From: Anaeromyxobacter sp.
Lineage (GTDB): Bacteria; Myxococcota; Myxococcia; Myxococcales; Anaeromyxobacteraceae
Assembly (NCBI GenBank): GCA_049840735.1
Contig: JASGJN010000017.1
Span: 544,001 to 608,000 of the forward strand
Reading direction: 5' to 3'
DNA length: 64,000 bases
Translations under genes and position numbers: made by a program
The notes under the pieces: generated by a model
The model's input: only the letters and a program-made list of their open reading frames with translations
What the model was told of the DNA's origin: nothing
Database searches by the model: none
Shown: in pieces, positions 9,629-61,601 of the stretch
Layout: each line of letters begins with the position of its first letter
How positions within the stretch are numbered: the stretch's first letter is position 1

Positions 9629-9713
9629 CGGCTCCAACCTCGCCTCCGTGGATGTGCCGGTTCTACCAGAACCCGAGGCTCCGGTGCAGGGGATAACCCT
9701 GCCATGTGGTGGG

Positions 9714-12164: not shown

Positions 12165-14623
12165 CGCGCGCCTCCCCGCTCCAGCGCCGCCTCGAGCGCG
12201 TCCAGCTCGCGAAGCAGCGGCAGCCCGGGATCCGCGCGGGCCCAGAGCGCCCGCAGCTGCGCCGCGGTCCCGCGCGCCGCCTGGGGCTGGCCCGTGGCCG
12301 CCTCGGCGCGGGCCCGCAGCAGCAGGGCCCGCGGGTAGGCCCAGCAGCGCCACATCCCGCGGGACGGGAGCTCCAGGAAGCGCCGCGCGGCGGCCAGGGC
12401 GGTGCGGTGTTCGCCCGCCGCGGAGGCCACCTCGGCCAGGAGGTAGGCCGGGGAGACGCCGTGGACCGGCCGCGAGTCGCGCTCCTCCGCCGCGGCCAGC
12501 ATCGCCAGCGCCAGATTGACGTCTCCTTCGCGCCAGGCCAGCAGGGCCTGGAGCTCCTGCTCGACGACCGAGCCCGGCGGGGCGGCGGCCCCCAGGTGAC
12601 GCGCGCCCTCCACGTCGCCCAGGAGCCCGAGCGGCAGCGCCAGATCGACGCCCCACAGCGGGTCCACGGCCGCGGTCTGCTCGGCGGACCGACGGACCCG
12701 CCGCGGGTCCCAGCTCACCACCGTCAGCATCGCGTCGCGGCTGTGGCGATCGGCGGGCTCGCGGACCGCGTCCGCCACCACCTGGGAGGTGGCCAGCGCG
12801 TCGGCGAGCCGCCCCTGGGTGGCCTGCGCGATGGCGACCAGCGTCCCCTTCCATGGGTCCTCTGGATGCGCGGCCGCGTCGCGCCGGGCGACGTCCTCCA
12901 TCTCGGCGTACAGCCCGGCGGTGCCCAGCGCCATCCGCAGCGCGGTCAGCCCCGCGTCGCCGTGGCTGACCACCGCCTGGCGCCCCACCGCCACCGCCTG
13001 CAGCGGATCGTACCAGACCAGCGCCCGGACCTGCCCCACGGCGCGCCCCACCGTGTCCGGCGTGGCCCCCAGCTCCGCCACCAGCGCCCGGAGCTCCTCG
13101 TGCCTCCCCAGCCGGCCCAGCGCCTCGGTCAGCGCCTGCAGGGCGTCGTCGTCGCTGGGCCTCAGCTGCAGCCGCTTGCGGGACAGCCGGGCCACCCCGA
13201 CCCAGTCGCCGCGCCGCTGCGCCACCTCGTCGGCCGACGCCACCGCCTCGGCGTCGTCCGGCGCCAGGGCCAGGGCCTCGCCGTAGAGCTGCGCCGCCTC
13301 GTCCCAGCGCTCGTGGAGCATGGCCGCGCGGGCCTTGAGCAGCCGCGCCTCCAGGGGTGGCAGCCGGTCGGCGGTCGCCAGCGCGGTCGCGAGGAGCGGG
13401 CCCCACAGGTCCTCGGACGCACCCTCGAGCGAGCCGATCACCAGCCGCTGGTAGGCGGCCAGCCCGAAGCCAGGGTCGTGCGCCAGCGCCCGCTCGAAGG
13501 CCGGGATGCAGGCCTCCGAGGCGCCAGCGATCCCGGGCGCGCGGCGCAGGCAGTCCATCCCCTCCTCGTACGCGCGGGCGGCCTCCGGGATGACCGTGGG
13601 GGGCGGCGGCCGCGCGGTCCACCAGCGGAGGCCGGCGCCGCCGGCCAGCGCACAGGCAGCGAGGGCGGAGGCGAAGAGCCAGCGCCGGAGCCGGCGGCCG
13701 CGGGCCCCGAGCCGCGCCAGCGCCTCCACCACGTCGGCCGCGCTGGCCGGGCGCCGGTCCGGCTCGCGCTCGAGCAGCCGCCGCACCAGCGAGCGCAGCG
13801 CGCCCGGCGCCGCGGCGCGCGGCAGCGCCGGGGTGCGGCCCTGCTCCAGCACCTCGCGGCGTCCGGAGCGGGCCTCGTAAGGCGTCCGGCCGCCCAGCGC
13901 CTCGAAGAGGATGACGCCCAGCGCGAACAGGTCGGTCCGCGCGTCGCCCGCCTCGGCCCGCCACTGCTCCGGGGCCATGTACGCAGCGGTGCCGCCGTCG
14001 CTCGCCCCCTCGCGGCCGAACAGGTGCGAGAGGCCGAAGTCGAGCACCTTGACCTGCCCGTCCTCGCCCAGGTGCACGTTGCCCGGGGTGAGGTCGCGGT
14101 GGAGGACGCCGGCGGCGTGCGCGTGCCGCAGCGCCGCCGCCACGGCCGCGCCGAGCCGCGCCGCCTCCGCCGCCTGCAGCGGCCCCCGCTTCAGCCGCTC
14201 CGCCAGCGTCTCGCCGCGCAGCAGCTCGAACACCAGGTGGACCCCGCCCGGCCCCTGCCCCACGTCGTGCAGCGTGACGATGCCCGGGTGGTTGAGCCGC
14301 GCCACCGCCTCCGCCTCGCGCCGCAGCGAGTCCGGGCCGTGCGCGCCGAGCCGGGCGCCGGGGCGGACCACCTTGAGCGCCACGGCGCGCCCCAGCTCCG
14401 CGTCGCGGGCCTCCCAGACCACGCCGAAGCCGCCCCGCCCCAGCTCGCGGACCAGCTCGAAGCGGCCCACGCGCGCGCCGGGCTCGAGCCCCGACCACGC
14501 CTCCGGGACGGCCCGCTCCTCGGTGCGGACCAGCTCGGCCAGCAGGTCGGTGAGCTGGCGCGAGCGCGGGTCCAGCGCGACGCCGTCCGGACCAGGCTCG
14601 CCGTTCTGGACCTGCGTCAGCAC
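12161..14623 (-). CDS. Membrane Ser/Thr protein kinase with TPR-like region (paralog 1)
   Basis: LGRGGFG, HRDLTPGN, DFG, YMAPEQW, TM helix, TPR-like region. Confidence 0.9.
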   Translation of the reverse strand: MLTQVQNGEPGPDGVALDPRSRQLTDLLAELVRTEERAVPEAWSGLEPGARVGRFELVRELGRGGFGVVWEARDAELGRAVALKVVRPGARLGAHGPDSLRREAEAVARLNHPGIVTLHDVGQGPGGVHLVFELLRGETLAERLKRGPLQAAEAARLGAAVAAALRHAHAAGVLHRDLTPGNVHLGEDGQVKVLDFGLSHLFGREGASDGGTAAYMAPEQWRAEAGDARTDLFALGVILFEALGGRTPYEARSGRREVLEQGRTPALPRAAAPGALRSLVRRLLEREPDRRPASAADVVEALARLGARGRRLRRWLFASALAACALAGGAGLRWWTARPPPPTVIPEAARAYEEGMDCLRRAPGIAGASEACIPAFERALAHDPGFGLAAYQRLVIGSLEGASEDLWGPLLATALATADRLPPLEARLLKARAAMLHERWDEAAQLYGEALALAPDDAEAVASADEVAQRRGDWVGVARLSRKRLQLRPSDDDALQALTEALGRLGRHEELRALVAELGATPDTVGRAVGQVRALVWYDPLQAVAVGRQAVVSHGDAGLTALRMALGTAGLYAEMEDVARRDAAAHPEDPWKGTLVAIAQATQGRLADALATSQVVADAVREPADRHSRDAMLTVVSWDPRRVRRSAEQTAAVDPLWGVDLALPLGLLGDVEGARHLGAAAPPGSVVEQELQALLAWREGDVNLALAMLAAAEERDSRPVHGVSPAYLLAEVASAAGEHRTALAAARRFLELPSRGMWRCWAYPRALLLRARAEAATGQPQAARGTAAQLRALWARADPGLPLLRELDALEAALERGGAR

Positions 14624-25961: not shown

Positions 25962-26083
25962 CAGCGCGTCACGACGTCCAGCCGCCTTCCTGGAGGCCTT
26001 CTACGCCGCGCTGCGCGGCCGGCTGGCGCGGCGGCTGCTCCTCGCCAGGCGCCGCGCGTCGAAGGACGACAGGCTGAATCAGC

Positions 26084-26926
26084 TCACTCGAACACCGCCG
26101 CCAGCTCCACCTGGGCGGCGGCGTCGGGTGCGGCCTTCAGCCGGTGGTACACGACGGCGGCCGACACGGGGCCGGCCGCACCGGCGGCGCCGGTCGCCGG
26201 CAGGATCACGCCGAAGAACGCGAAGACGACCTCGCCGGAGGCCCTCGGGGCCGAGAGGGCGCCCACCACCAGCACCCCCGCGATCACGACCGCGCCCAGC
26301 GCGAGCAGGGCCAGCAGCGCCTGGACCGCGAGCGCGCCGAGGAGCGCCCAGCGGCGGCCGCGGGTCAGCTGGGCGCTGCGCCGCAGGGAGGAGAGGATCC
26401 CCTCCCCCTCGAGCGCGATGAGCGGAAGGGCCAACCACCAGCGCACCGCCAGGACCGGGGCGGCGGCGGCCCCGGCGATGGCCAGGAGGGGCGGCCAGGA
26501 GCTCCACTGGAGGTTTCCGTTCGCGGCCAGCGCGATGATCAGCGCGATACCGGCCACGACGGCGCCTCCCACGGCGCAGCCGGCCATCACGGGCAGCACG
26601 CGCCGCCAGGCCGGCCCGAGCGCGCGGCGGAGCGGCAGCCGCTCGCCGCGGAGCGCGGCAGCCGCCCCTGCCGTCACGGCCACGAGTCCCAGCGCGCCGA
26701 CCAGCAGCCCGACCGCACCGGTGGCGAGGAACATGATCAGCGCCGACGTTCCGGACGGGCCGCCGTCTTCCTGGCCCAGGACGGTGAAGAACCAGGCCAG
26801 GAACCCGAGCAGCGGCAGTTGCGCCACCGCGCCCATGACGCCGAACCGGTGCAGGTTCCGGAGCCAGATGCCCAGCGCCGGTCGGATCAGTGGGCCCAGC
26901 GGGGCGCGCGGATCTCCCGGCCCCAT
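26084..26926 (-). CDS. Hypothetical multi-pass membrane protein
   Basis: Several hydrophobic segments; LE.EG..SLRRS..LTRGRRW pattern and C-terminal VVYHRLK..LAAVFE. Confidence 0.7.
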   Translation of the reverse strand: MGPGDPRAPLGPLIRPALGIWLRNLHRFGVMGAVAQLPLLGFLAWFFTVLGQEDGGPSGTSALIMFLATGAVGLLVGALGLVAVTAGAAAALRGERLPLRRALGPAWRRVLPVMAGCAVGGAVVAGIALIIALAANGNLQWSSWPPLLAIAGAAAAPVLAVRWWLALPLIALEGEGILSSLRRSAQLTRGRRWALLGALAVQALLALLALGAVVIAGVLVVGALSAPRASGEVVFAFFGVILPATGAAGAAGPVSAAVVYHRLKAAPDAAAQVELAAVFE

Positions 26927-27102
26927 GCGGTCAACCCAACACCGGCGCCAGGCGGGCCCGCGTGCTCCGAAGCGGCTGCTGCTCCATCTCGCTCCTCCGC
27001 GCCGGAGGGCGCGCGGCGACGAGCCTACGGGACCGCGCGGCGTGCGGGAAGTGCGTTCCTGGGACGCGGTGGGCGGATGGCCTACAGACGGGAGCGGCTC
27101 CC

Positions 27103-27125
27103 TGACCATATGCGCCCAAATCTAG
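27103..27125 (+). repeat. Degenerate copy of the RAYT-element terminal site
   Basis: TGACCATATGCGCCCAAATCTAG, 20/23 identical to TGACCATATCCGCCCGAATCAAG at 37230-37252. Confidence 0.7.
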
Positions 27126-27189
27126 CTGGGGTCCGTGCATCCGCTCGCGCCGCGCCCGCAGCAGCCGCGCCAGCTCCAGGGTGTCCGGA

Positions 27190-27966
27190 TTACAGCCGGA
27201 AGAACCGCCGCGTGTTCTCGGAGGTGACCCGCGCCACCTCCTCCAGCGTGGTGCCCCAGACCTCGGCCACCTTGCGCGCCGTCTCCACCACGTGCGCCGG
27301 CTCGTTGCGCTTGCCCCGGTGCGGGATGGGGGCCAGGTACGGGCTGTCGGTCTCCACCAGCAGCCGGTCCCGCGGCACGATGGCCACCGCGTCGCGGATG
27401 GCGCCGGCGGTCTTGAAGGTGACGATCCCCGCCACCGAGATGAGCAGCCCCAGCTCGAGGAAGGCCCGCGCCGCGGCCACGTCGCCGGTGAAGCAGTGGA
27501 TGACGGCGCCGGCCGGCGGGACCCCCTCCTCGCGCAGCACCCGCGCGCAGACCTCGTCCGCCTCGCGCACGTGGACCACCAGCGGCTTGCCCGCCGCGTG
27601 GGCCAGGCGGATGGAGCGGCGGAAGGCCTGCTCCTGCACGTCGCGCGGGGACAGATCGTAGTGGAAGTCCAGCCCCGCCTCCCCCACCGCCACCACCCGC
27701 GGGTCGCGGGCCATGACCTCGCAGGCCGCCCAGTCCTCCTCCGGCACCCGGGCGCAGTCGTGCGGGTGGACCCCCACGGTGGCGGCGAAGAAGCCCGGGT
27801 CGCGGGTGGCCAGCGCCAGCGCGTTGCCGAAGTCGCCCGGCTTGCGCCAGAGCCCGACCAGCACCACCCGCGACAGCCCGGCGGCCCGCGCGCGGTCGAT
27901 CACCGCCTGCAGGTCGCCCTCGTAGTCCTCGCCGTCGAGGTGGGCGTGGGAGTCGATCAGGGTCAT
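27190..27966 (-). CDS. tatD: TatD-family hydrolase
   Basis: IDSHAHL, GVHPH, VGEAGLD, HVREA, HCFTG, ETDSPYLAP..RNEP. Confidence 0.93.
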   Translation of the reverse strand: MTLIDSHAHLDGEDYEGDLQAVIDRARAAGLSRVVLVGLWRKPGDFGNALALATRDPGFFAATVGVHPHDCARVPEEDWAACEVMARDPRVVAVGEAGLDFHYDLSPRDVQEQAFRRSIRLAHAAGKPLVVHVREADEVCARVLREEGVPPAGAVIHCFTGDVAAARAFLELGLLISVAGIVTFKTAGAIRDAVAIVPRDRLLVETDSPYLAPIPHRGKRNEPAHVVETARKVAEVWGTTLEEVARVTSENTRRFFRL

Positions 27967-27974
27967 GCCCGGAC

Positions 27975-30074
27975 CTACTTCACCCGCGTGCCCGCCGCGA
28001 TGGAATCGCCCACCGTGACGACCTGGAGGTTGGGCACCTCGCCGGCCGCCAGCAGCATGCCGTGCGAGGTGATGCCGCGCAGCGGGCGCGGCGCCAGGTT
28101 GGCCACCACCACGATGCGCTTGCCCACCAGCGCTTGCGGCTCGGGGTAGGCCTGGGCGATGCCGGCCACGATGGTGCGCGGCTCGGGCTCGCCCACGTCC
28201 ACCGCCAGCTTGAGCAGCTTGTCGGCCTTCTCCACCTTCTCCGCCGCCTTCACCACGCCCACGCGCAGCTCCACCTTGGCGAAGTCGTCGTAGGTGATGA
28301 CGCCGGGCGGGGGCGGCGGCGCGGCCTTGGCGCTGGCCTTGCTGGCCGTCTCGGCCGGGCTGGCCGCCTTGGCGACCTTGGCCGCCGGCGCGGGCGCAGG
28401 CGCCTCGGCCGGCGCCGCCACGATCAGCTTCTCCACCTGCTTGGCGTCGAGCCGGGCGATCTGCGGCGGCTTGGCGGCCGCGGTCACCGGCGCGCCGGCG
28501 AACGGGTCGAAGTCCTTCTCCCAGACCGCCGGCCGCGCCTGGCCGAACGCGGCCACCAGCGCGTCGCAGAAGCGCGGCAGCACCGGCCAGAGCAGCGTGG
28601 CGAGGCCCCGCAGCGACTTGGCGACCGTGAAGAGCAGCGCGCGGCTCTGCGGGCCCTGCGGGTCCTCCCAGGGCTTGGCCTCCTGCAGCCGCTTGTTGCA
28701 GCGGTCGGCCACCTGGTTGGCCAGCCGCACCACCTCGCGCAGCTCCAGCGCCTGGTAGGCGGCGCGCCCCAGGTGCAGCGCCGAGCGGGTGGCCTCGACG
28801 ATGGGCTCCTCGGGCGCCTCGGCCAGCGGCGCCCCGGCGCGGGCCACCAGCGCCGCCACGCGCGAGGCCAGGTTGGCGATGTTGTTGGCCAGGTCGGCGT
28901 TGATGCGGTTGCGGAACTCGTCGATGGAGAGGTCCAGGTCGGCCACGCCCGGCCCCAGGTTGGCGCAGTAGAAGTAGCGCAGCAGCTCGGGATCCAGGCC
29001 GGCGTCCAGGTAGGTCCTGCCGGTGATGAAGGTCCCGCGCGACTTCGACATCTTCTCGCCGTTGACGGTCAGGTGGCCGTGCACCGCCATCCGGTCCGGG
29101 CGCTTGAAGCCGGCGGCCCAGAGCATGGCCGGCCAGAAGACGGCGTGGAAGCGCAGGATGTCCTTGCCGATGAAGTGCTCGAGCCGCGCCGCCTGAGGGT
29201 TCTGGGCGGAGAGGTACTGCTGCTCGTAGGCGGCCGGCGCGAGCCGTGGCTCGGCCTGGTGCGCGAAGTAGTGCTCGGCGCTGGAGAGGTAGCCGATGGG
29301 CGCGTCCATCCAGACGTAGAGGAACTTGCCCGGGAACTCGGGGTCGTTGACCGGGAAGCCGAAGTAGGGCGCGTCGCGGGTGATGCACCAGTCCTGCAGG
29401 TCGGCCAGCCAGCCCTTCACCTGCTCGCGCACGGCCGGCTCGAGGTGCCCCTCGGCGGCGACCCAGCCGTCGATGATGGCCTTCACCTCCGGCTCGCGCA
29501 GGTTGACGTAGGCGTGGTCGCTGGTCCGGACCACCGGCGCCGAGCGGCAGATGGCGCAGTACGGGCCCTTGAGGTCGCGCGGGTCGTAGGTGGTGCCGCA
29601 CTTCTCGCAGACGTCACCGTACTGGTCGGGCGTGCCGCACTTCGGGCAGGTGCCCTTCACGAACCGGTCGGGCAGGAAGCGCTTGTCGGTCTCGCAGTAG
29701 AGCTGCTCGACCGACTTCTTGTAGATGAGCCCCTTCTGCTTGAGCGCATCGTAGATGCGGTACGCCCAGCGCCGGTTCTCCTCCGAGTCGGTGGTGTAGT
29801 AGGTCGAGAACTCCACCCCGAAGCGCTTGAAGTCCTCGTGCTGCTCGGACCGGTAGGCCTCCACGAAGGCCTTGGGGGTGACGCCGGCCTTGGCGGCGTT
29901 CACCTCGATGGGCGTGCCGTGCGAGTCGGCCGCGCAGACGTACGCCACCTGGTCGCCGGTGGAGCGGCGGAACCTGACGTAGACGTCGGTCTGGATGTAC
30001 TCGACCAGGTGGCCGAGGTGGATCGAGCCGTTGGCGTACGGCAGTGCGCTGGTGACCAGGATCCGCTGACTCAC
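27975..30074 (-). CDS. metG: Methionine--tRNA ligase
   Basis: SALPYANG.IHLGH, Zn knuckle, KMSKS, C-terminal tRNA-binding domain. Confidence 0.97.
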   Translation of the reverse strand: MSQRILVTSALPYANGSIHLGHLVEYIQTDVYVRFRRSTGDQVAYVCAADSHGTPIEVNAAKAGVTPKAFVEAYRSEQHEDFKRFGVEFSTYYTTDSEENRRWAYRIYDALKQKGLIYKKSVEQLYCETDKRFLPDRFVKGTCPKCGTPDQYGDVCEKCGTTYDPRDLKGPYCAICRSAPVVRTSDHAYVNLREPEVKAIIDGWVAAEGHLEPAVREQVKGWLADLQDWCITRDAPYFGFPVNDPEFPGKFLYVWMDAPIGYLSSAEHYFAHQAEPRLAPAAYEQQYLSAQNPQAARLEHFIGKDILRFHAVFWPAMLWAAGFKRPDRMAVHGHLTVNGEKMSKSRGTFITGRTYLDAGLDPELLRYFYCANLGPGVADLDLSIDEFRNRINADLANNIANLASRVAALVARAGAPLAEAPEEPIVEATRSALHLGRAAYQALELREVVRLANQVADRCNKRLQEAKPWEDPQGPQSRALLFTVAKSLRGLATLLWPVLPRFCDALVAAFGQARPAVWEKDFDPFAGAPVTAAAKPPQIARLDAKQVEKLIVAAPAEAPAPAPAAKVAKAASPAETASKASAKAAPPPPPGVITYDDFAKVELRVGVVKAAEKVEKADKLLKLAVDVGEPEPRTIVAGIAQAYPEPQALVGKRIVVVANLAPRPLRGITSHGMLLAAGEVPNLQVVTVGDSIAAGTRVK

Positions 30075-31474
30075 GACCTGCTCCTTTCACGACGGTCTTC
30101 GGCGAGGAGGCCCAGCAGCACCCGCTCCAGGCGGAGCCGCCCGTCCTGCCCGCTCTTCATGGCGACGTCGGCCTGGGCCAGGCCGGCGAGGGCGTCCAGC
30201 AGCTCTCCCCTCGAGAACCGCAGCGACGCCTGGTACTTCATCCAGAAGCCGTACGGCTTCTTCGACCCCAGCTCCTCCTCCGGGATGGAGGGGAGCACCT
30301 GGGCCTGCCAGTCGTTGAAGCTGCCGATGCGCCGGTCCCCGGCGGCGCGGCGCGCGCGCTCCCGCTCGGCGATGAGCCGGCGCACCGTGCCGGCCAGCGA
30401 CCCCAGCAGCATGAAGGGGCTGCCGCCGTCGGCGATGGACCGGTCCAGCACCGCCAGCGCGCCCGGCAGGTCGCGCGCCTCGACGGCGTTGCCCAGCGCG
30501 AAGAACGGGTCGGAGGCGACGCGCGTGACCACCGCGTCCACGTCGGCCGCGCCGATCACCTTCCGGTCGCCCACGTAGGCAGCCAGCTTCTGCACCTCGG
30601 AGGCGAGCACGCGGGCGTCCTCGCCCACCAGCGCCGCCAGCCGGGCCTCGCCGCCGGCGTCCACCCGCTTGCCGGTGCCGGCCAGCAGCGCCGAGAGCAC
30701 CGGCGCCAGCACCAGGCGCTGCGCGTCCCACTGCCCTTCCTTCTCCAGCGCGGTGGTGACCCGCCGCCCGGCCGCGGCCAGCTTCTTCACCACCGGCAGC
30801 CGGCCGTCCACCTTGCCGGCGGCGATCACCAGCACGTGGCCGCGCGGGAAGCCGCGCGCCAGCGCCAGGTCGAGCGCGGCCGAGTCGTCGCCCTTGGCGA
30901 CCTTCAGCTCGCGCTCGATGGCGAAGCGGGCGGCCTGGCCGACGAAGGCCGCGCCTTCACCCAGCGTCACCCCGAGCTCCTTCGCGAAGGCGTCCAGGTC
31001 CGGCGCCGGGTCGGCCTTGGGGTCCAGGTCGGCGGCCGACCAGCCGGCCTTGGCGGCCAGCGCCAGCAGGCGTCGCGCCGCCTCCCGCTGCCGCCCCTCC
31101 GCCCACATGGCCCGGGCGCGGTCGAAGGCGTCCTGCGCGTCCTCCTTGGACGCCAGGAAGGCCGGCTCCTGGACCAGCACCACCTTGCCGCCGCCGAACA
31201 GGCCGCCGGTGGCCACCTCCGCGGCCACCTCGGCCGGCGTGGCCGCCGCGTCCAGCTCCACCAGGTTGAGCGCGCGCGCCGCCTCGGGGACCATGGCGTG
31301 GGCCAGCGCCCGCGCCGCGCGCAGCGCCAGGAAGGCGTCGCCGTCGAAGAGGTAGACCGGCTGCGGCGAGCCCGCCTGCACGTCGGCCAGGCAGGTGTCG
31401 AGCGTGGCGCCCGCGGCGCCCGCCCGCGCTCCGGCGCCCGCGGCGCCCCTGCCCCCGCTACGCGGCCCGGCCAT
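30071..31474 (-). CDS. holA: DNA polymerase III delta subunit
   Basis: PVYLFDGD, LFGG.KVVLV, EVQKLAAY, D.AMKSG; adjacent to holB. Confidence 0.8.
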   Translation of the reverse strand: MAGPRSGGRGAAGAGARAGAAGATLDTCLADVQAGSPQPVYLFDGDAFLALRAARALAHAMVPEAARALNLVELDAAATPAEVAAEVATGGLFGGGKVVLVQEPAFLASKEDAQDAFDRARAMWAEGRQREAARRLLALAAKAGWSAADLDPKADPAPDLDAFAKELGVTLGEGAAFVGQAARFAIERELKVAKGDDSAALDLALARGFPRGHVLVIAAGKVDGRLPVVKKLAAAGRRVTTALEKEGQWDAQRLVLAPVLSALLAGTGKRVDAGGEARLAALVGEDARVLASEVQKLAAYVGDRKVIGAADVDAVVTRVASDPFFALGNAVEARDLPGALAVLDRSIADGGSPFMLLGSLAGTVRRLIAERERARRAAGDRRIGSFNDWQAQVLPSIPEEELGSKKPYGFWMKYQASLRFSRGELLDALAGLAQADVAMKSGQDGRLRLERVLLGLLAEDRRERSRS

Positions 31475-32510
31475 GGAACCACCCGATGAAGAGCCCCTCC
31501 AGCGCCAGCACCGGCGAGGCGTTCTGGCGGAGCCCGGCCGCCGTCTCCTCCACCAGCCCGCGGCGCCGGACCACCTCGGCCGCCGTGAGCGCCGCGGCGG
31601 CCCGGCGGGACTCCGGCGCCAGGTCGGCCAGCGCCAGCGCCGCGCCGCCGGCCTGCAGGGCCAGCACGTCGCGCAGCCAGAGCGCCAGCAGCGCGCACAG
31701 CTCGCCGGCCTGCTCGCGGTCCTCGCCGTGATCCCGGGCGAAGGCCAGCCAGCCGCCGGCGTCGTCCGGATCGAGCGCCACCGCCGCCCGGACCGCGTCG
31801 CGCAGCCCGTCCAGCGCCGCCGGATCGAGCGCCAGCGCCCGCCCCAGCGAGCCGGCGGCGAGCGCCGCGGCCAGCCGCGCCTCCTCTTCGCTCCGGCCCT
31901 TGGCCACCAGCTGCTGCACCACCAGCGCGTCCGGCACCGGGCCGAACGGCACCCGCAGGCAGCGCGAGCGGATGGTGGGGAGCAGCACGTCGGGGCTCGC
32001 GGCCACCAGCACCAGCGTGGTCTCCTCCGGCGGCTCCTCCAGCGTCTTGAGCAGCGCGTTCTGGGCCTGCGGGTTCATGGCGTCGGCCGGGTCGATGATC
32101 ACGAACCGGCGCCGCCCCTCGAACCGCTTCATGGCCAGGCGGTGGTCGACCAGGTCGCGCACCTGGTCCACCACCACGTCCTTCGACGGCGAGCGGCCGC
32201 CCTTCGGCTCCCAGGTGCCGGCCTTGGCCATCACCCGCTCCTCGTGGAGCACCATCACGTCCGGGTGGACGCCGCGGGCGATCTTCCGGCAGGGGCCGCA
32301 GGCGCCGCAGGGGTCGTCGCGGTAGCCCGGCGCCGAGGTCGCCTCCCCGCCCTCGCAGTTGGCGGCCTGCGCCAGCAGCTGGGCCGCCCGGCCCTTGCCC
32401 GTCCCCTCCGGGCCGCCGAACAGGTAGGCGTGGTGGAGCGCGCCACGGCGGAGCGCGGCACGGAGCGCGCCGAGCGCGCGATCCTGTGCGGTGACCTCGG
32501 AGAAAGGCAT
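31458..32510 (-). CDS. holB: DNA polymerase III delta-prime subunit
   Basis: HHAYLFGGPEGTGK, CG.C..C..HPDV, NALLKTLEEPP, LPTIRSRC. Confidence 0.93.
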   Translation of the reverse strand: MPFSEVTAQDRALGALRAALRRGALHHAYLFGGPEGTGKGRAAQLLAQAANCEGGEATSAPGYRDDPCGACGPCRKIARGVHPDVMVLHEERVMAKAGTWEPKGGRSPSKDVVVDQVRDLVDHRLAMKRFEGRRRFVIIDPADAMNPQAQNALLKTLEEPPEETTLVLVAASPDVLLPTIRSRCLRVPFGPVPDALVVQQLVAKGRSEEEARLAAALAAGSLGRALALDPAALDGLRDAVRAAVALDPDDAGGWLAFARDHGEDREQAGELCALLALWLRDVLALQAGGAALALADLAPESRRAAAALTAAEVVRRRGLVEETAAGLRQNASPVLALEGLFIGWFHGRAA

Positions 32511-32636
32511 GGCGGGCGCAGGGTTATAGCACGCGGCTCCGACCCCGGCCCCGCTCACCGGACGCTGTGGGGCGATGTGGGATGGCGAAATGGACTCCGC
32601 CTCGCGTCCCGGTAAGATGGGACACCTGGAGCGGCC

Positions 32637-33149
32637 ATGAACATCACCCCCCTCGACATCACCCAGAAGCATTTCCCGAAGACCTTCCGCGGCTTGGATC
32701 CGGAGGAGGTCGAGGCCTTCCTGTCGCTGGTGGCGGTGGAGTTCGAGGCCCTGGTCAAGGACAACCAGGCCCTGCGCGACGACAACCAGCGCAAGGCCGA
32801 GGAGATCGTCGAGTACCGGGGGCGCGAGCGCGCGCTGCAGGAGACGCTGGTGGCCGCCCAGAAGGCGTCGGAGGAGATCCGCGACTCCGCCCGCAAGGAG
32901 GCGGAGATCACCATCTCCGACGCCGAGCTGCAGGCGGAGAAGATCGTCCAGGGCGCCCACTCCCGCTTCCTGCGGATCGTGGACGACATCAACGAGCTGA
33001 AGCGCCAGCGCGTGCAGTTCGAGGCCAGCGTCCGCACCCTGGTGGAGAGCCACCTCAAGCTGATCGAGGCGTTCCGCGAGCCCGCGCGCGAGGAGGCCGT
33101 GCAGTACGTGCCCGGCGCGCGCAAGAAGCTGGGCGGCGCGGAGGAGTAG
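32637..33149 (+). CDS. DivIVA-domain protein
   Basis: ITPLDI..K.F.KTFRG.DPEEVEAFL plus coiled coil. Confidence 0.92.
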   Translation: MNITPLDITQKHFPKTFRGLDPEEVEAFLSLVAVEFEALVKDNQALRDDNQRKAEEIVEYRGRERALQETLVAAQKASEEIRDSARKEAEITISDAELQAEKIVQGAHSRFLRIVDDINELKRQRVQFEASVRTLVESHLKLIEAFREPAREEAVQYVPGARKKLGGAEE

Positions 33150-33205
33150 CGGCGCCGCGGTTCACTCGAGGGGACGCCCGCCTCGGCGAGCGCCCCCTGA
33201 TCCCG

Positions 33206-33252
33206 GTCATCCTGAGCGTAGCGCCCGCGGAGCGGGCGCGGAGTCGAAGGAC
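33206..33252. repeat. REP-like palindrome, same family as 24404-24662
   Basis: GTCATCCTGAGCGTAG-CGCCCGCGGAGCGGGCG-CGGAGTCGAAGGAC. Confidence 0.7.
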
Positions 33253-33289
33253 GACCGGGGGCCCGCACCTCAAGGCCAGGTGGTCGCGC

Positions 33290-34213
33290 TCAGAACGTGT
33301 TGGGCGGCGAGAGGGCCACCCGATCGCCGTCCGAGCCGTTCCAGGACAGCGAGGCCTCGTCGTCCAGGCTCGGGTCGAACCGGCAGGGCGCGTCCGGCGG
33401 CTCCACCACCACCTGGCCGTTCGCGACCGCCGGGTGGAAGTAGGCGATGGCGGCCACCTGGCCGTCGGCGTCGATGTCGGACTCGGCGCAGATCGAGAAC
33501 GCCTCGTGCTCCCCGTCCTCGGACGTCTGCGTGGCCACCGTGTAGACCCCGTAGGTCGGGCCGAAGACGCGCCAGTCCACCTGCTCCGCCGCCGCCTGGT
33601 CCTCCTCGGAGAGCGCGACGCGCTCGCTGCCCGGCTCGGCCTCCGCCGGGACGGCCAGCTCGACCGTGCCCTGGCCCGCCTCGAGCCGCGCCAGCTCCGC
33701 CTGGTACAGGCCCTGCGCCTCCGTCGTGACCTGCGAGTACTTCGAGCGCAGCTGGTAGCGGATGAAGTTCGGGATGGCGATGGCCGCCAGGATGCCCAGG
33801 ATGACGACGAAGAAGAAGGGCGCGATGCAGAGCACCACCACCATGCCGGTGTTGGCCGCCCCCGGGTACTTCCGCTGGAACTCCTCCTCGCTCATCACCA
33901 GCAGCAGGATGAACTCGATGAAGGCGACGATCCCCGGGATCATCGTCCAGAAGAAGAGCATGTAGACGATGCCCCAGCCCCAGCGCCCCAGGTAGAACTT
34001 GTGGGCGCCGAAGCCGCCCAGGAAGAAGGCCAGCAGCGCCGCGACCACCTTGCTCCGCCCGCCCTGCGGCTGCGCCGCGTAGGGCGCCCCGCCAGCGAAG
34101 GAGAGCTGCTGCGCGCCGCAGCGGTCGCAGAAGCCGGCCTGGGCCGGCAGCACGTTCTGGCACTTCATGCACAGCTTCTGGTTCACACCCAGCTGCGTGA
34201 CCGGCTCGTTCAT
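33290..34213 (-). CDS. Zinc-ribbon + TM2/NINE + pilin-like domain membrane protein
   Basis: CMKC..FCDRCG; SKVVAALLAFFLGGFGAHKFYLG; ILGILAAIAIPNFIRYQLRSK. Confidence 0.8.
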   Translation of the reverse strand: MNEPVTQLGVNQKLCMKCQNVLPAQAGFCDRCGAQQLSFAGGAPYAAQPQGGRSKVVAALLAFFLGGFGAHKFYLGRWGWGIVYMLFFWTMIPGIVAFIEFILLLVMSEEEFQRKYPGAANTGMVVVLCIAPFFFVVILGILAAIAIPNFIRYQLRSKYSQVTTEAQGLYQAELARLEAGQGTVELAVPAEAEPGSERVALSEEDQAAAEQVDWRVFGPTYGVYTVATQTSEDGEHEAFSICAESDIDADGQVAAIAYFHPAVANGQVVVEPPDAPCRFDPSLDDEASLSWNGSDGDRVALSPPNTF

Positions 34214-34499
34214 CGAAGGCTCCCGATCGCCCCGCGGCGATCCCCCGGGTTGAGGCCGGCAGGCTACTTGATCCAGGCGCTGACCCAGCGGCCATTTCGC
34301 TTCCCGGTGCGTGCATGTGCGAGGACCGCGGCGGACTGTCGCTGGTGACGGGCGCGAGCAGCGGGGACGCCCGGCCACGGGCCGCACTTGATTCGGGCGG
34401 ATATGGTCACGGCGGGTGGCAGGACCTTCGAGCCCGCGCCGGACCGCATCCCTCCCCCTGGACCTTGACCCGGAGCCTCGCGCCCGTGAGATTCCGGCC

Positions 34500-35411
34500 G
34501 TGCGCCACTCGCCTTGCGCCTCGATCTTCGCGCTCCTCATCGCGCTCCCCGCCGCGGGGGCCTCGCCGCCTCCAGCTGCACCGCCCGCAGCAGCGGCCCT
34601 GGCCGCGCTCGAGGCGCGAGCACATGGCCGGCTCGGCGTCGCTGCGCTGGACACCGGCTCCGGGCGCCGGATCGACCACCGCGGGACAGAGCCCTTTCCC
34701 ATGTGCAGCACCTTCAAGGTGCTCCTCTGCGCTCGAGTCCTCCAGCGCGTCGACCACGGCGAGGAGCGGCTCGACAGGCCCATCACCTTCACCGAGGCCG
34801 ACCTCCCGGAGTACGCGCCCGTGGTGCGCGCCCACCTCGACGCCGGTGGGCTGTCCGTCGGCGCCCTCTGCGCAGCCACCGTCGAGGTCAGCGACAACGC
34901 CGCCGCGAACCTCCTCTTGAAGTCCATCGGCGGACCCGCGGCCGTGACCGCCTTCGCGCGCTCGCTCGGCGACGAGCGGACCCGCCTCGACCGCGTCGAG
35001 CCTGACCTCAACTCCGCCCTGCCGGGCGACCCGCGCGACACCACCACGCCGGACGCCATGCTCGAGGACCTTCGCCTGCTGCTCCTGGGTGGTGGGCTCC
35101 CCTCCAGCTCAGCCCGCCAGCTCGAGGCCTGGATGGCCGGCGCCACCACCGGTGCCGGCCGCCTCCGGGCCGGCGTCCCAGCAAGCTGGACGGTCGCGCA
35201 CAAGACCGGGACCGGCGAGCGCGGGACGACGAACGACGTCGCGCTCCTTCGCGCTCCCGGGCGAGCGCCCATCCTGGTGGCCGCCTACCTCACGGGTTCC
35301 GATCTCCCCGCGGCCGAGCGCGAAGCGGTCCTCGCCGAGGCCGCGCGCATCGTCGTGGGGGCGTTCCCTCCAGCTCCGCCACACACCGAGGATCGAGCAC
35401 GGGGCCGATAG
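34500..35411 (+). CDS. bla: Class A serine beta-lactamase
   Basis: Signal peptide; FPMCSTFK (SxxK), SDN, RLDRVEPDLN (E166/N170-like), RDTTTP, HKTGTG. Confidence 0.93.
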   Translation: MRHSPCASIFALLIALPAAGASPPPAAPPAAAALAALEARAHGRLGVAALDTGSGRRIDHRGTEPFPMCSTFKVLLCARVLQRVDHGEERLDRPITFTEADLPEYAPVVRAHLDAGGLSVGALCAATVEVSDNAAANLLLKSIGGPAAVTAFARSLGDERTRLDRVEPDLNSALPGDPRDTTTPDAMLEDLRLLLLGGGLPSSSARQLEAWMAGATTGAGRLRAGVPASWTVAHKTGTGERGTTNDVALLRAPGRAPILVAAYLTGSDLPAAEREAVLAEAARIVVGAFPPAPPHTEDRARGR

Positions 35412-35628
35412 CGAGCCGTATCGGGAATTCCGTCTGACGCGCTGGTACCTGCGCTCACCCTTCCTGCGGCTTCACCACGAACCTACGCCGGTGGATCCGC
35501 TGGACGCTCCCGGAGTCCAGCCCGACGACCAGCTTCACCCGGGGGACTTCCACGACCAGATCGATGGCGATCTGTCCCGCTTCCTGCGCCGTCGGTGAAG
35601 CCTCCCTTAGCTGAAGCCTGGGCTGCCT

Positions 35629-35653
35629 CACTTGATTCGGGCGGATATGGTCA
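35629..35653. repeat. Internal perfect copy of the element end site
   Basis: CACTTGATTCGGGCGGATATGGTCA identical to 34385-34409. Confidence 0.9.
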
Positions 35654-35780
35654 GGGCGCTGAGGCGAGGGTCGCTCGCCTCCGCCAAGGAGGCTCTCGGT
35701 GTGGGCGCGGGTGACGCTCCCGTGCGCCCGCGCCGCCTCGCGCAGCCGATGTGGCGCCGCGTTCGTGGTCTCATCGCGTC

Positions 35781-36221
35781 ATGGCGACACCGGATTGGAA
35801 GAGGTTGATATCGTCGCTCGAAGCGGAGGCGGCGTTCCATCCGGCCGCGGCCGCCGAGCAGGTCCGGCAGACAGAAGCCGCGCTGGGCGTCGCCCTCACG
35901 GTCGAACTGCGGTCGCTCGTGCAGCAGAGCGATGGCGTGACCGGCGCATCCGGGGCTGGGCTCGTATGGCCGGTCCAGCCGATCCGTAAGCAGAACCGGC
36001 ACTTCCGGACCTTGGCCGACCTCCGCAAGATCTACATGCCGTTTGACCCGCTGCTTCGCGGACGCCGGCAACGGCGACCAGTTCGCATTCAGGATCTGCG
36101 GCGACCAGGTCGCAGGGAACGACGTCTTCGTGTGGGAGCACGAGACCGCCAGCAGGACCTGGTAGCGCCAAGCCTCGAGCGCTACCTCGAGTGGATCCTG
36201 AGCGGGAAGATCCAGACCTGA
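35781..36221 (+). CDS. SMI1/KNR4-family protein with two compensating frameshifts (or pseudogene)
   Basis: P.A..EQV...E.ALGV.L..EL...SDG; alternate frame about 36055-36163 reads FADAGNGDQFAF..VFVWEHE; ends VAPSLERYLE. Confidence 0.75.
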   Translation: MATPDWKRLISSLEAEAAFHPAAAAEQVRQTEAALGVALTVELRSLVQQSDGVTGASGAGLVWPVQPIRKQNRHFRTLADLRKIYMPFDPLLRGRRQRRPVRIQDLRRPGRRERRLRVGARDRQQDLVAPSLERYLEWILSGKIQT

Positions 36222-36512
36222 GCCCGGCGCGGCCCTTCCGGGCGCCGACCACCGCATGGCCAGCCGACGCTCGTCCCGTGCGCCTGAGAAGGCGGACTTT
36301 CCACGAAGCGTGTCGTCACTCCGCGTGATCTACTCCACAAGACTCGGGACTTGACCGCGGCGGCGAAGCCCGACTCACCCACCGCCGTCAGCCGGGCCCC
36401 GAGCAGCGCCTGACCCGATGCCGTGACCCCGCGCTTCGGCTACGACCGCCATCGCGAGCTCAGGGACTTCCGGCGCGACGACGCCCCAGGCCAGGTCAGC
36501 CTCAGCAAGGCA

Positions 36513-37151
36513 TCACCCCTTACCCTGAACGCGCTTGGCTCGGCCCATCAGCCACGTCCTCGGCTCCGCGGTCACCGCAACAGGCCAGAGTCCGAGCTGT
36601 CCCACCCGCGGCTCCCGGACCGCCGCGGAAGAGTATGGGTCCACGAACGCCGCGCTCACCTGCTCCCCTCGCCGGGAAGCATGGCTCGCGAAGTTCCCGC
36701 GCACGTACCTGAGCGCGTTCCGAGCCTCGGCCTGCGTCCGCAGCGGGTGCGCGTGGTAGCGCCCCTCGAACACCGGGCCGCGCAGCCCCATCATCCGGTT
36801 GAGCCGGTGGGTGAGCTTGATGGTCAAGGATCGCATCCCTCGAGCCAGGCCCGCGTTTCCCTCTGCCTCGACCAGCAGGTGCACATGGTTGCCCTGCACG
36901 GCGTACTCGACGACCTGCAGCTCCGCCTTCGCGCGCTGTTCCTCGAGCACCCTGTGCACGACACGGAAGCACCGCTCGCTGCGGAGATTCCAGACGTGCT
37001 CGCGGACGCGCAACGTTACGTGCACCGGTTCCGACCGGTAGACGACCTCGCGAAGACGGTGTGCGACCGGACGGCGGCCGGGCGCCGCCTTCCGGCCGGC
37101 GCCAGCCCGCGCGCCGCCCCAGGGTTTGAACGTGAAGGTCTGCTGCGACAT
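36513..37151 (-). CDS. Y1 HUH transposase (RAYT/TnpA-REP/IS200-like)
   Basis: PVHVTLR, YAVQGNHVHLLVE (HUH), VFEGRYH, ALRYV (putative catalytic Tyr), DPYSS. Confidence 0.88.
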   Translation of the reverse strand: MSQQTFTFKPWGGARAGAGRKAAPGRRPVAHRLREVVYRSEPVHVTLRVREHVWNLRSERCFRVVHRVLEEQRAKAELQVVEYAVQGNHVHLLVEAEGNAGLARGMRSLTIKLTHRLNRMMGLRGPVFEGRYHAHPLRTQAEARNALRYVRGNFASHASRRGEQVSAAFVDPYSSAAVREPRVGQLGLWPVAVTAEPRTWLMGRAKRVQGKG

Positions 37152-37445
37152 GGACGAACAGTACGATAGCGCTCTGACACCCAGCGTGCACAGGCGCGGC
37201 ATCGACTCACGCGTGGACGCTTCGCGCCGTGACCATATCCGCCCGAATCAAGTTCGGGCCACGGGCCCTCGCGCCATGCAGCCTACTCTCTCACCTCCGC
37301 CACGCCCCCACCCGCCGCCGGCGGCGCCCAGGGGTGTCCTGTTTATCTCCTCCACCTCATGGGGCGTACCCGTGCTCGACGCGGTCCAGCGAGACGTTGA
37401 GGTGCACTGCCCTGTCATGCGCTTCGCCTCCTTCCGCCGGCGTCA

Positions 37446-37475
37446 CGCGCCGTTGCCATTTCCGCCCAATTCAAG
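37446..37475 (+). repeat. Degenerate copy of the element end site
   Basis: CGCGCCGTTGCCATTTCCGCCCAATTCAAG vs CGCGCCGTGACCATATCCGCCCGAATCAAG (25/30). Confidence 0.75.
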
Positions 37476-37500
37476 CTGAGGCCCGGGCTCCGCCGCCCCC

Positions 37501-40201
37501 TCAGTGCGCCTCCGCCCAGCTCCGCCCCTGCCCCACCTCCACGTCCAGCGGGACCTTGAGCTGCGCGGCGGCCGACATCTCTCGGGCGACCAGCGCGCTG
37601 GCGGCCTCCACGGCGCCCTCGGCCACCTCCAGCACCAGCTCGTCGTGGACCTGGAGCAGCAGGAGCGCGTCCAGCTGCTCGCGCTGCAGCGCCTCCTGCA
37701 CGCGCAGCATGGCCAGCTTCACGATGTCGGCGGCGGTGCCCTGGATGGGCGTGTTGATGGCGGTGCGCTCGGCGGCCATGCGCAGCGCGGGGTTGCGCGA
37801 GGTGATCTCGGGCATGGCCCGCACGCGGCCGTAGAGCGTTCGGCTCTCGCCGGTGCGCTTGGCGTCGGCGACGGCCTGGTCGATGTAGGCGCGCACGCCG
37901 GCGTAGCGGGCGAAGTACCGGTCGATGATCTTCTGCGCCTCGCCGGCCGGCAGCTCCAGCCGCTGCGAGAGGCCGAACGCGGAGAGGCCGTAGGCGATGC
38001 CGAAGTTGAGCATCTTGGCCACCCGGCGCATGTCCGGGGTGACGCCGTCCGGCGCCACGCCGAAGGTCTCGGCGGCGGTGCGGGTGTGCACGTCCTCGCG
38101 GTTGCGGAAGGCCTCCAGCAGCGCCGGGTCGTCCGAGTAGTGGGCCAGGATGCGCAGCTCGATCTGCGAGTAGTCGGCGGAGACCAGCCGCCGCCCGGGC
38201 GGCGCCACGAAGGCGGCCCGGATACGCCGCGACAGCTCGGTGCGGACGGGGATGTTCTGGAGGTTGGGGTCGGTGGACGAGAGCCGCCCGGTGGCGGCGC
38301 CGGCCTGGTGGAAGGTGGTGTGGAGGCGGCCGTCCTGCGGATCGACCAGCTGCGGGAGCGCGTCCACGTACGTGCCCTTGAGCTTCGCGAGGCCGCGGTG
38401 CTCCAGCACCAGCGCGGGCAGCGCGTGCTGCTCGGCCAGCTTCTCCAGCACCTCCTGGTCGGTGGAGGGGCCGGTCTTGAGCCGCTTCACCACCGGCAAC
38501 CCCAGCTCCTCGAACAGCACCTGCGCCAGCTCGCGGGTGGAGGCGATGTTGAAGGGGCGGCCGGCGGCGGCGTGGATGCGCGCCTCCAGGTCCACCATGG
38601 CCTTGCCGAACTCGGCGCTCATGTCCGCCATGGCCCCGCGGTCCACGGCGATGCCGGTCCGCTCCATCACGAACAGCACCGGCACCAGCGGCCGCTCCAC
38701 CTCGCGGTAGAGCGGCGTGAGCCGCTCCTCCTCCAGCGCTGCCACCAGCGCCTTGGCCAGATCGGGCAGCGCGGCGGCCGCCGCCCCGCACCACTCCGCC
38801 ACCCGCTCGACCTCGATCCCCTCCAGGTCCACCCGCTCCGAGCGGCGGGCCCCGTCGCCGCCGCTGGGGTCGCGCGGCAGCTCGCAGGCGATCCGCTCCC
38901 GCGCCACGTCGGCCAGCGCGTGCTCGCGCCGGGTGGGCAGGAGCAGCCGGCTGGCCAGCTCGGTGTCCACCCCCGGCCCGCGCCAGCGGAGCCCCAGCGC
39001 CGCGGCGGCGTGGTGCGCCGCCTTGAGCTCGTGGGCGTGCTTCTCCACCTCGCCCTCCAGCAGCGGCCGCAGCGCCTCGCGGACGCCGTCGCGCGGCAGC
39101 GCGGGGGGCGCGCCCAGGTAGCGGTGGCCGATGGGCAGGTAGAAGGCCCGCCCGCCGCCGGCCAGCCCCAGCCCGACCACCGGGGCGGCCCGCGGCGGCC
39201 CCTCGCCCAGCACCGGGCGAACCCCCACCGCCCCGGCCTGCAGCAGGTGCGCGACCGCCGCCTCCAGGCTGGCCAGGTCGCGCAGCAGCTCCGGCTTCTC
39301 GGCGCGCGCGGTGGGTGGCGGCGCCGGCAGGTCCTTGAGCAGCCGGGAGAACTCCAGCTCGGAGAAGAGCGCCCGGGCGCGGGCGTCGTCGGGCGGCTGG
39401 CGCTCGAAGCTCTCAGGCTGGAACGGCAGCGCCAGGTCACAGCGGAGCGACACCAGCTGGCGGTTGAGGCGGATCCGCTCCGCGGCGCCGGTGATCTTCT
39501 CGCGCAGCTTCTCGCCGCCGCGCGAGAACCGCCTGGGGGATCTCCTCCGGGCGGCGCAGCAGCTCCTCGACCGTGCCGAAGTGCTTGATGAGCGCGGTGG
39601 CGGTCACCTCGCCCACGCCCGGGATGCCCGGCACGTCGTCGATCTTGTCGCCCAGGATGGCCATGTACTCGACCACCTGGTCCGGGCGGATGCCCAGCTT
39701 CTTCTCCACCTCGGCCGGCCCGGTCCACCCGCCCCGCCCGCTGGCCTCGGCCATCGGGTCGTAGAGCGTCACCTGCCCGTCCACCAGCTGGGCGAAGTCC
39801 TTGTCGCCGGTGACCACCACCACCTGCCAGCCGTGCTCACGGGCGCGGCAGGCCAGCGTGCCGATCACGTCGTCGGCCTCGACGTGGGCCTCCTCGATGA
39901 GCGGCACCCGCAGGGCCCGCGCCACGTCGCGCACCAGCGGAAACTGCGCCTTGAGGTCGTCGGGGGTCTCCGGCCGGCTCGACTTGTAGCCGGGGTCGAG
40001 GTCGTGGCGGAAGGTGGTGCGGGCCGCGTCCAGCACCAGCGCCACGTGCGTGGGCGCCCGCTCCCGCAGCGCCTTGAGCAGCATGGTCGTGAAGCCGTAG
40101 ACCGCGTTGGTCGGCTGGCCCTTCGTGGTGGTGAGCGGCGGGAGCGCGTGGAACGCCCGGTAGACGAACCCGGAACCGTCGATCAGGGTCAGCGTCGGCA
40201 T
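37501..40201 (-). CDS. polA: DNA polymerase I; frameshift near 39530
   Basis: LIDGS..YRAFHALP, EADDVIG, TGRLSSTDPNLQNIP, ADYSQIELR, LLQVHDEL. Confidence 0.95.
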
Positions 40202-40265
40202 GGCCCGCACGATAGCCGCGCGGGCGCCTGCGGGCACCGCGAAAAGTTGGGCTCCCGGTTGGCGC

Positions 40266-60617: not shown

Positions 60618-61535
60618 TCACCGCTGCTCGAGCTCGGCCAGCCAGTCGTGCAGCGGCGGTCCGGGGTGGTGGCGCAAGGCCCACAGCACCTTCGCCACCT
60701 GGCCGGTGCTCATGCCCAGGACCCGCGCGATCTCGTCGTGCGGGTAGGCCTGCGCGCGGCTGAGCGCGTAGACCGCCAGCCTCCGCCCCGGGTTGGCGCC
60801 GCGTCCCATGGCCGGGCGCTTGAGCTCGGCCATGCTGCAGCCGGCGATGCGCGCCACCTCACGCAGCACCTGATCGACGCTGGCGGGGCGAACCTGCTCC
60901 GCCCGGCGGGGCCGGCGCAAGGGACGCTCCTCCGGCTCGTCCCCGCGGCGGAACCAGCCGGTCTCGAGGTCGAGCAGCGGCGGGAAGAGCTCGACCTGCT
61001 TGCGCCGCGCCCGGACGAACGCCTCCACCTTGGCTGGACCGCCCAGCCGCTCGCGGAAGACGTCCAGGGTGAGCCAGCGCGCCGGGTGGCGCTCCCGGCC
61101 CAGGTACGCGCGCAGGCTCGACCAGCAGTCGTCGTCGAGCCGGGTGGCCAGCCCCGCCTTGAAGGGGTTCAGGTGGATGTAGGCGAAGAGCGCGTCGAGG
61201 TGGGCCTCGTCCTCCACCGGCTGGCTGCGGAAGCGGCCGCGGAAGACCGGCCCGTCCCAGCCATGGAGGCGGTTGAGCCGCTGCGTGTAGGTGCCGTTGA
61301 GGTGGCGCATGGCGCGCGAGAGGTTGCCCAGCGGGGAGCGCGCCAGCAGGTGGTAGTGGTTGGGCATGAGGGCGTAGACGTGCACCTCCAGCCCGTGGTG
61401 CAGCGCCGCCTCGTCCAGGCACTCGAGGAACAGCTCGCAGTGGGCGTTGCGACGGAAGATGGGCTCGCGCCGCGCCCCGCGGTGCATCACGTGGTGCCAT
61501 GCGCCGGGGTGGTCGGTCCGGAGGAGTCGCGCCAT
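60618..61535 (-). CDS. Y1 HUH transposase (RAYT/IS200-like) with C-terminal HTH (DnaA-C-like)
   Basis: HHVMHRG..IF, YALMPNHYHLL, GPVFRGRF, YIHLNP..AGL, WSS..AY; C-terminal EIARVLGMSTGQV. Confidence 0.9.
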   Translation of the reverse strand: MARLLRTDHPGAWHHVMHRGARREPIFRRNAHCELFLECLDEAALHHGLEVHVYALMPNHYHLLARSPLGNLSRAMRHLNGTYTQRLNRLHGWDGPVFRGRFRSQPVEDEAHLDALFAYIHLNPFKAGLATRLDDDCWSSLRAYLGRERHPARWLTLDVFRERLGGPAKVEAFVRARRKQVELFPPLLDLETGWFRRGDEPEERPLRRPRRAEQVRPASVDQVLREVARIAGCSMAELKRPAMGRGANPGRRLAVYALSRAQAYPHDEIARVLGMSTGQVAKVLWALRHHPGPPLHDWLAELEQR

Positions 61536-61601
61536 GGGCCCACGCTAGCGCACCGGGGCGGGCAAGTGGAAGGAACCGGCCCCCCGCCCCGCGCGGGCCG
61601 C

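Follow-up and report, generated by a model that had tools for sequence, protein, structure and literature searches.

The systems closest to the one considered here are the TIRtrons, in which Y1 genes (TIRYTs) are framed by terminal inverted repeats (TIRs) that form dispersed families (Di Nocera, De Gregorio, Rocco 2013, PMC3733652). As far as the main text and readable supplements of that paper go, the motif GGGGWSAS occurs in the majority of TIRs, unrelated TIRs are also recorded, and the taxa discussed below are not mentioned; its other supplements may list relatives. ISDra2, a member of the IS200/IS605 group of insertion sequences (ISs), is stimulated by DNA damage and, judging by the printed oligonucleotides, inserts 3' of TTGAT and has a right end that finishes in TTCAA (PMC2806898). 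Here, we analyze a 64,000-nucleotide stretch of an Anaeromyxobacter sp. genome (the window), which holds between positions 34373 and 37267 a Y1 HUH gene and a beta-lactamase gene among copies of a short repeated sequence, hereafter the end. On balance, we consider it fairly probable that this is a TIRtron-type element, a Y1-HUH gene bounded by inverted, non-hairpin ends of 25-26 bp.

The locus is the gap between two convergent genes (window 32637-37501), which we take from their translations to be divIVA and polA, and it adjoins a TM2-domain gene. An earlier note on this DNA had described an unusual cargo-carrying HUH element with perfect terminal repeats, and the repeats are indeed perfect: end S1 (34386-34414, plus strand) is over 29 bp the exact reverse complement of end S3 (37225-37253, minus strand, approximately 75 nt upstream of the Y1 start). 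Both point inward, the S1 terminus probably lies 0-4 nt farther outward, and the site does not form a hairpin (folding z = 0.33 and 0.46). The Y1 and beta-lactamase genes both lie inside the unit, as had been stated. The pair is not unique, since the site belongs to a dispersed family with five copies in the window. Copies absent from the earlier note are a third near-exact one inside the unit, S2 (35630-35658, plus strand, same direction as S1 and 28/29 identical to it), and two degenerate ones on the minus strand. The order at the locus is S1> bla S2> SMI1 <Y1 <S3 <S4. S2 and S3 delimit an inner element of 1.62 kb and, because S2 parts the beta-lactamase from the Y1 portion, the 2.9-kb unit is only one among several possible nestings. 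A Y1-family site with cargo thus stands, whereas the joining of a Y1 gene to terminal inverted repeats is not without precedent, as TIRtrons came before it (PMC3733652, in the parts named above).

The Y1 enzyme and described Y1 systems

The Y1 gene (36513-37151, minus strand) encodes a 212-aa transposase-like enzyme with PF01797 (Y1_Tnp) as its sole Pfam domain. We found 1678 homologues, the best at 55-61% identity, and the related Y1 loci come from Anaeromyxobacteraceae and other Myxococcota. Among 40 sequences H89, H91, Y149 and N153 are invariant (the HUH motif is H89-V-H91), and the tyrosine motif reads YxxxN followed by F, Y, H or R and never by P, which departs from the class 2 signature YxxxNP. 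The N-terminus carries a conserved WGGxRxGAGRK. The predicted structure (mean predicted local distance difference test score, pLDDT, 78) matches first TnpA-REP (4ER8) and then the IS200, ISDra2 and IS608 enzymes; it ends in one short C-terminal helix and lacks the C-terminal helix-turn-helix (HTH)/DnaA-like extension. Scores fall under the cut-offs of both the RAYT model (NF047646, 37 vs 80) and the IS200 model (NF033573, 17 vs 55). This enzyme is encoded once in the host genome (G000), and a weak second match is a different, typical subclass 2.1 protein.

The element shares with TIRtrons (PMC3733652, parts as above) a RAYT-like HUH/Y gene with both histidines and the tyrosine, inverted repeats unrelated to REPs (the pair in the window and 14 further ones), and membership of a moderately abundant dispersed repeat family. 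It differs in its end, whose consensus is xCTTGA-N3/4-GGCnGAtAtgGTCA and not GGGGWSAS, in its kilobases of cargo, and in the additional occurrence of direct or tandem ends. Since unrelated TIRs were included in 2013, the missing GGGGWSAS does not exclude TIRtron membership. With TnpA-Y1 subclass 2.1, as portrayed in the sections consulted of Quentin et al. 2018 (PMC6006769), it has in common the NHVH HUH motif, a downstream SS motif, the lack of REP hairpins and a low copy number, but subclass 2.1 enzymes have the C-terminal HTH/DnaA-like domain and YxxxNP. RAYT/REP systems (REPtron, REPIN; 4ER8) provide the best structural match and resemble it in cognate repeats dispersed downstream of genes and in a single-copy enzyme; unlike them, it has no GTAG/GTGG-footed hairpin beside the gene, and the approximately 20 ends are mostly solo. 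The IS200/IS605 group has the same fold, and the TTGAT/TTCAA pentamers of ISDra2 match the outer pentamer of the end on two strands, but these ISs, as described in the sections consulted (PMC2806898), have distinct hairpin left and right ends and no TIRs. The element therefore fits the loose definition of a TIRtron and falls outside subclass 2.1, RAYT/REP, IS200/IS605 and DDE-type elements. No paper on this Y1 family was found in our literature searches, one of which was broad and judged by title and the start of the abstract.

The window also contains a second, unrelated Y1 gene (60660-61536, minus strand, start at 61536) with NHYH, YIHLNP and a C-terminal HTH-like match. The motif GGGGTCAA lies upstream of it, and the gene is a typical TIRYT with a subclass 2.1 signature.

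Association of the end with the Y1 family

A profile of the end found 21 sites scoring at least 20 in the 6.67-Mb host genome. The 20 sites scoring at least 30 were kept and one with a score of 25, inside a gene, was dropped; the reversed genome yielded no site. Y1 loci numbered 132 in total and 112 after removal of redundancy, and the 100 with at least 200 nt of upstream sequence were used for co-occurrence. An end lay within 350 bp of the Y1 gene in 69 of these 100 and in none of the reversed flanks, and in 26 of the 29 best-scoring (closest) loci, the profile behind both counts having been partly trained on the same flanks. A fixed pattern independent of the profile matched 22 of 92 family genomes and no controls. 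Where a close-clade Y1 gene was present, gene-distant ends were tallied in 13 of 16 genomes, and where it was absent in 8 of 76; Fisher's test overstates this contrast because of the kinship of the genomes. In a tree from a quick search (110 of the 112 rows, two having been dropped for several stops or short length), the window gene falls in a 27-row clade with a support of 100, and the upstream end points inward there. The upstream end of other clades points mostly outward, often touching the start codon, or forms part of a direct repeat around the gene. End variants follow the Y1 subclades. The flanks of homologues, which the earlier note had proposed to inspect, thus bear out the link: the end both co-occurs and co-varies with the enzyme.

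It is very unlikely that the ends belong to another enzyme (Xer/dif-like, phage integrase or DDE transposase) with Y1 as a frequent passenger. The end has a weak dyad, TGA-N14/15-TCA, and on the outer side of 8 of 104 ends there are nine tRNA/tmRNA matches at distances of up to 700 nt. At L240 (position ~3000) and L246 (position ~935), the end shares sequence with the final codons of a tyrosine integrase gene that neighbors tRNA-Lys and tmRNA, and IS256- and IS630-type fragments occur inside two elements. All of this would suit another enzyme, but integrase matches were found at only four fetched loci, the DDE fragments are sporadic, and the end variants track Y1 subclades. An integrase was rejected as the cognate enzyme on the first of these grounds. 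A dif/Xer site was rejected as well: dif sites carry an inner TAA/TTA, which is missing from the end. No DDE family was detected among 14 inner open reading frames scanned, and the genome-wide association with a DDE transposase that the earlier note had named as a counter-sign did not appear, as no DDE enzyme is consistently attached to the ends.

Other properties of the end were also considered. A hairpin between outer flank and end was seen at S3 (z -2 to -3); as a family feature it was rejected, because flanks permuted among sites gave equally low energies in 70, 104 and 127 of 150 permutations. The end has no sigma-70 promoter match, and positions 26000-40000 of the window gave no Rfam match to a structured RNA. 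In one subclade (L096, positions 622/1786; L100, 593/1302; L209), GTTCACC forms an additional outer motif approximately 8 nt past the end. In another (L147, L176, L183, L029), numerous ends of either orientation surround the gene within 1.5 kb, in a REPtron-like arrangement.

Element boundaries, cargo and the direct repeat

Inverted pairs at the same locus are alike on average at 22.4 of 30 positions (n=20), compared with 18.8 when an end is set against the remaining ends of its genome (n=202), and no two of the 20 host-genome ends are closer to each other than S1 and S3 (29/30). Sister elements at different loci share inner sequence, and their homology mostly ends 0-7 nt outside xCTTGA. Examples are the right ends of L196/L231 (96% inner identity, same genome), L240/L246, where homology ceases 3 nt outside the end, and L195/L242; a few element pairs keep homology for 9-23 nt beyond the end. 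Cargo differs between elements and includes IS fragments, an IF-1 and TPR proteins. L212 has a methylase/ResIII pair between two ends and L222 an end pair tightly around cargo, with no Y1 gene found in either. Inverted ends do, as the earlier note had it for this locus, bracket cargo, which is varied and foreign across elements. L231, L242 and L224 hold Y1 remnants, and thus some solo ends and empty pairs are decayed elements.

The beta-lactamase (34500-35411, plus strand, 303 aa) is of class A by family model (NF033103, 326 bits vs a cut-off of 200) and by its motifs, as SxxK, SDN, ExxLN (E166) and KTG are all present. It is foreign, with a GC content at third codon positions (GC3) of 0.87 vs approximately 0.98 for host genes, and lies as cargo between the two same-direction ends S1 and S2; GC3 within the unit as a whole is 0.84-0.87, compared with 0.98-0.99 for the flanking genes. 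A close homologue occurs in one of 91 other family genomes (G064, 65%, at a different locus). An end lies approximately 400 bp and a Y1 gene 550 bp away from it, and no end was detected on its other side; this suggests that beta-lactamase and element once moved as one. Most of the named close homologues belong to Geothrix. The second cargo gene is SMI1/KNR4-like (35781-36221, plus strand; weak Pfam match, E 0.065) and is frameshifted in the assembly. The polA gene (37501-40237) is broken into two overlapping frames and further genes are split, so the assembly probably contains indel errors, and these may include the SMI1 frameshift.

The direct repeat reported in the earlier note is real: GGCCACGGGC sits 3 nt outside both 29-bp repeats and grows to 11 bp, with a left copy at 34373-34383 and a matching right copy at 37257-37267 (both plus strand, offsets 2 and 3). 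Of 60,000 random intergenic pairs, 40 gave a repeat of at least 11 bp, or about 7 in 10,000 per pair; for all the pairs considered, this comes to approximately 2%, and chance is therefore not a safe explanation. It could be read as the mark of one recent transposon comprising the whole segment 34383-37256, whose HUH enzyme makes a 10-bp target duplication. This account draws on the closeness of S1 and S3, on the rarity of the repeat, and on its register, which agrees with the terminus inferred from homology stops and at which L204 has 7/10 matches. We regard it as improbable, because a direct repeat of at least 8 bp is absent from all 22 other inverted pairings, including pairs with 24-25/26 identical ends. 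The best was 7 bp in the 14 further Y1-containing pairs, equal to the maximum of 350 mismatched pairs, and 6 bp in 8 more pairings at 6 loci; at the register in question, the 14 pairs average 3.4/10 matches, like the null. Moreover, the 11-bp repeat matches the inner continuation of the end at C20:289304 at 10/11 positions, and the first 7 nt of the right flank are those found directly after CTTGA in the end. The repeat may thus be left over from an earlier end. In addition, Y1 transposases are described as producing no target duplication (PMC4810608, in the sections consulted). The target duplication claimed as a product of this enzyme is therefore not upheld, and the repeat is most likely a local feature, by chance or as an earlier-end relic. 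A DDE-like transposon with TIRs and target duplication was rejected, given that a fixed-length duplication is absent in the 22 pairings and that there is no consistent cognate DDE transposase. A short divIVA-polA gap is found in 17 of 27 relatives, and inspection by eye did not reveal the 10-mer there; these genomes are approximately 80% identical and have no TM2 gene at that place.

At 17 of 19 host-genome sites and 33 of 43 elsewhere (background 46%), the gene on the outer side of the end is co-oriented and has its 3' end toward it. Replication-strand bias was not seen (10 of 20 host-genome ends), a further departure from IS200/IS605. By eye, 9 of 14 elements lie between convergent genes, 3 between tandem genes and 2 lack a flank. 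A host gene was assignable for 66 of 104 ends, 9 loci are common to at least two genomes, and ends at orthologous loci form 22 cross-genome pairs, compared with 1-6 in simulations; inheritance and repeated targeting both fit this recurrence. At L096 and L100 (2 of 27 relatives), an end-flanked Y1 gene of another subclade occupies the same divIVA-polA gap in the opposite orientation. This gap is an insertion hot spot, with differing inserts of 0.9-12.7 kb in 10 of 27 relatives, 8 of them without Y1. S4 (37452-37476, minus strand), 25 nt past the polA stop, is likely an older end at this locus. A degenerate solo end (27102-27126, minus strand) lies 64 nt past the stop of a presumably TatD-like gene. 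Elsewhere in the window (8700-14600), three tandem paralogous kinase-like genes are spaced by approximately 2.5 kb.

Several observations weigh against a mobile TIRtron-type element. Outside the close clade, many Y1 genes have one end only, outward, or a direct repeat. Homology at the left ends of L196/L231 continues for approximately 170 nt past the end. On the inner side of most host-genome solo ends, the genes resemble those of the host (GC3 0.95), and no cargo gene recurs among the 20 inner segments compared, short end-proximal pieces aside; both observations speak against active cargo traffic. Three more distant beta-lactamase homologues in 368 class genomes have neither an end nor a Y1 gene within 1.5 kb. 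In the assembled sequences, no true empty allele, excised circle or near-identical multicopy element was found, and both the single enzyme copy and the recurrence of ends at orthologous loci would also fit long vertical inheritance. Finally, the enzyme lacks a recognized domain for binding double-strand DNA and the end lacks a hairpin, either of which would have explained how the end is recognized.

An alternative that takes up some of these points is a domesticated REP-like system, in which Y1 is inherited vertically and seeds or maintains short ends, while cargo gathers passively in insertion-prone 3' spaces and does not travel with the ends. One Y1 copy per genome is typical, ends at orthologous loci have locus-specific variants, most solos stand beside host-like genes, and the eight Y1-less inserts among the ten in the divIVA-polA gap also suit it. 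Viral contigs yielded neither a Y1 relative nor an exact end, and plasmids one 26% match only. We nonetheless hold it to be unlikely, in view of the sister elements L196/L231 at different loci of one genome, the 20 dispersed copies in G026, the end pairs tight around Y1-less cargo in L212 and L222, and the linkage of bla, end and Y1 at two loci. The G026 homologues (L059-L076) belong to several subfamilies and are up to 97% alike; they are mostly one-ended, with a single outward-facing end before the start codon and homology stopping near the stop codon.

A candidate damage-responsive promoter and a possible mechanism

A promoter-like motif, TGTCAG-N10-TAnnnT (37158-37179, minus strand), precedes the Y1 gene. 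The form TGTCRG-N10-xAnnnT is found upstream of 22 of 29 clade Y1 genes vs 18 of 78 others, and the strict motif with a spacer of 10 occurs 9 times in the host genome vs 0-5 times at other spacers. It agrees with the PafBC consensus, given as tGTCgg(N10)tA(N3)T in the sections consulted of PMC8635444. The host genome encodes two adjacent WYL pairs (C4:44974-46263 and C22:606764-607959). A PafBC-type motif at C12:95189 also precedes a 1017-aa gene, whose product we take to be AddB-like. A PafBC-like damage regulon in a myxobacterium is possible, and judging from the motif DNA damage would likely induce the Y1 gene through this promoter.

In the TIRtron-type element that we favor, the enzyme would likely recognize the ends and cut and rejoin them on single-stranded DNA through its HUH motif and Y149, and the DNA between two ends would move along with them. 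Cutting may fall at the pentamers TTGA(T/A) / (A/T)TCAA. The same pentamers mark the ISDra2 sites and are thus a lead for the cut position; the conserved C outside the outer pentamer of the end is not accounted for by this parallel. Symmetric ends would let either strand serve, and direct-repeat ends such as S1/S2 would permit cassette excision on one strand. Insertion would be into intergenic spaces at the 3' side of genes, in many cases convergent ones. Further ends would then build up and bring in cargo (here, S1-bla-S2 joined to S2-SMI1-Y1-S3), and the elements would decay into solo ends. A more ambitious scheme, to which we attach little credence, is a damage-induced HUH gene-capture system, in which an HTH-less Y1 enzyme would read a non-hairpin 25-bp site, excise cargo in either end arrangement and re-integrate it, integron-like, at resident sites near conserved host genes, having moved the beta-lactamase with itself between loci.

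TIRtrons were named in 2013, and the papers that we found contain no experimental test of them; what is at stake is the use of hairpin-less inverted ends by a single-strand HUH enzyme. The family offers a small enzyme and a sharply defined end, of which more than 100 variants exist in nature. The terminus is mapped, and there are candidates for both the cut site and a damage-inducible promoter, which makes the mechanism directly testable. If cargo does move with the ends, such elements would represent a further route for soil bacteria to shuffle resistance and defence genes.

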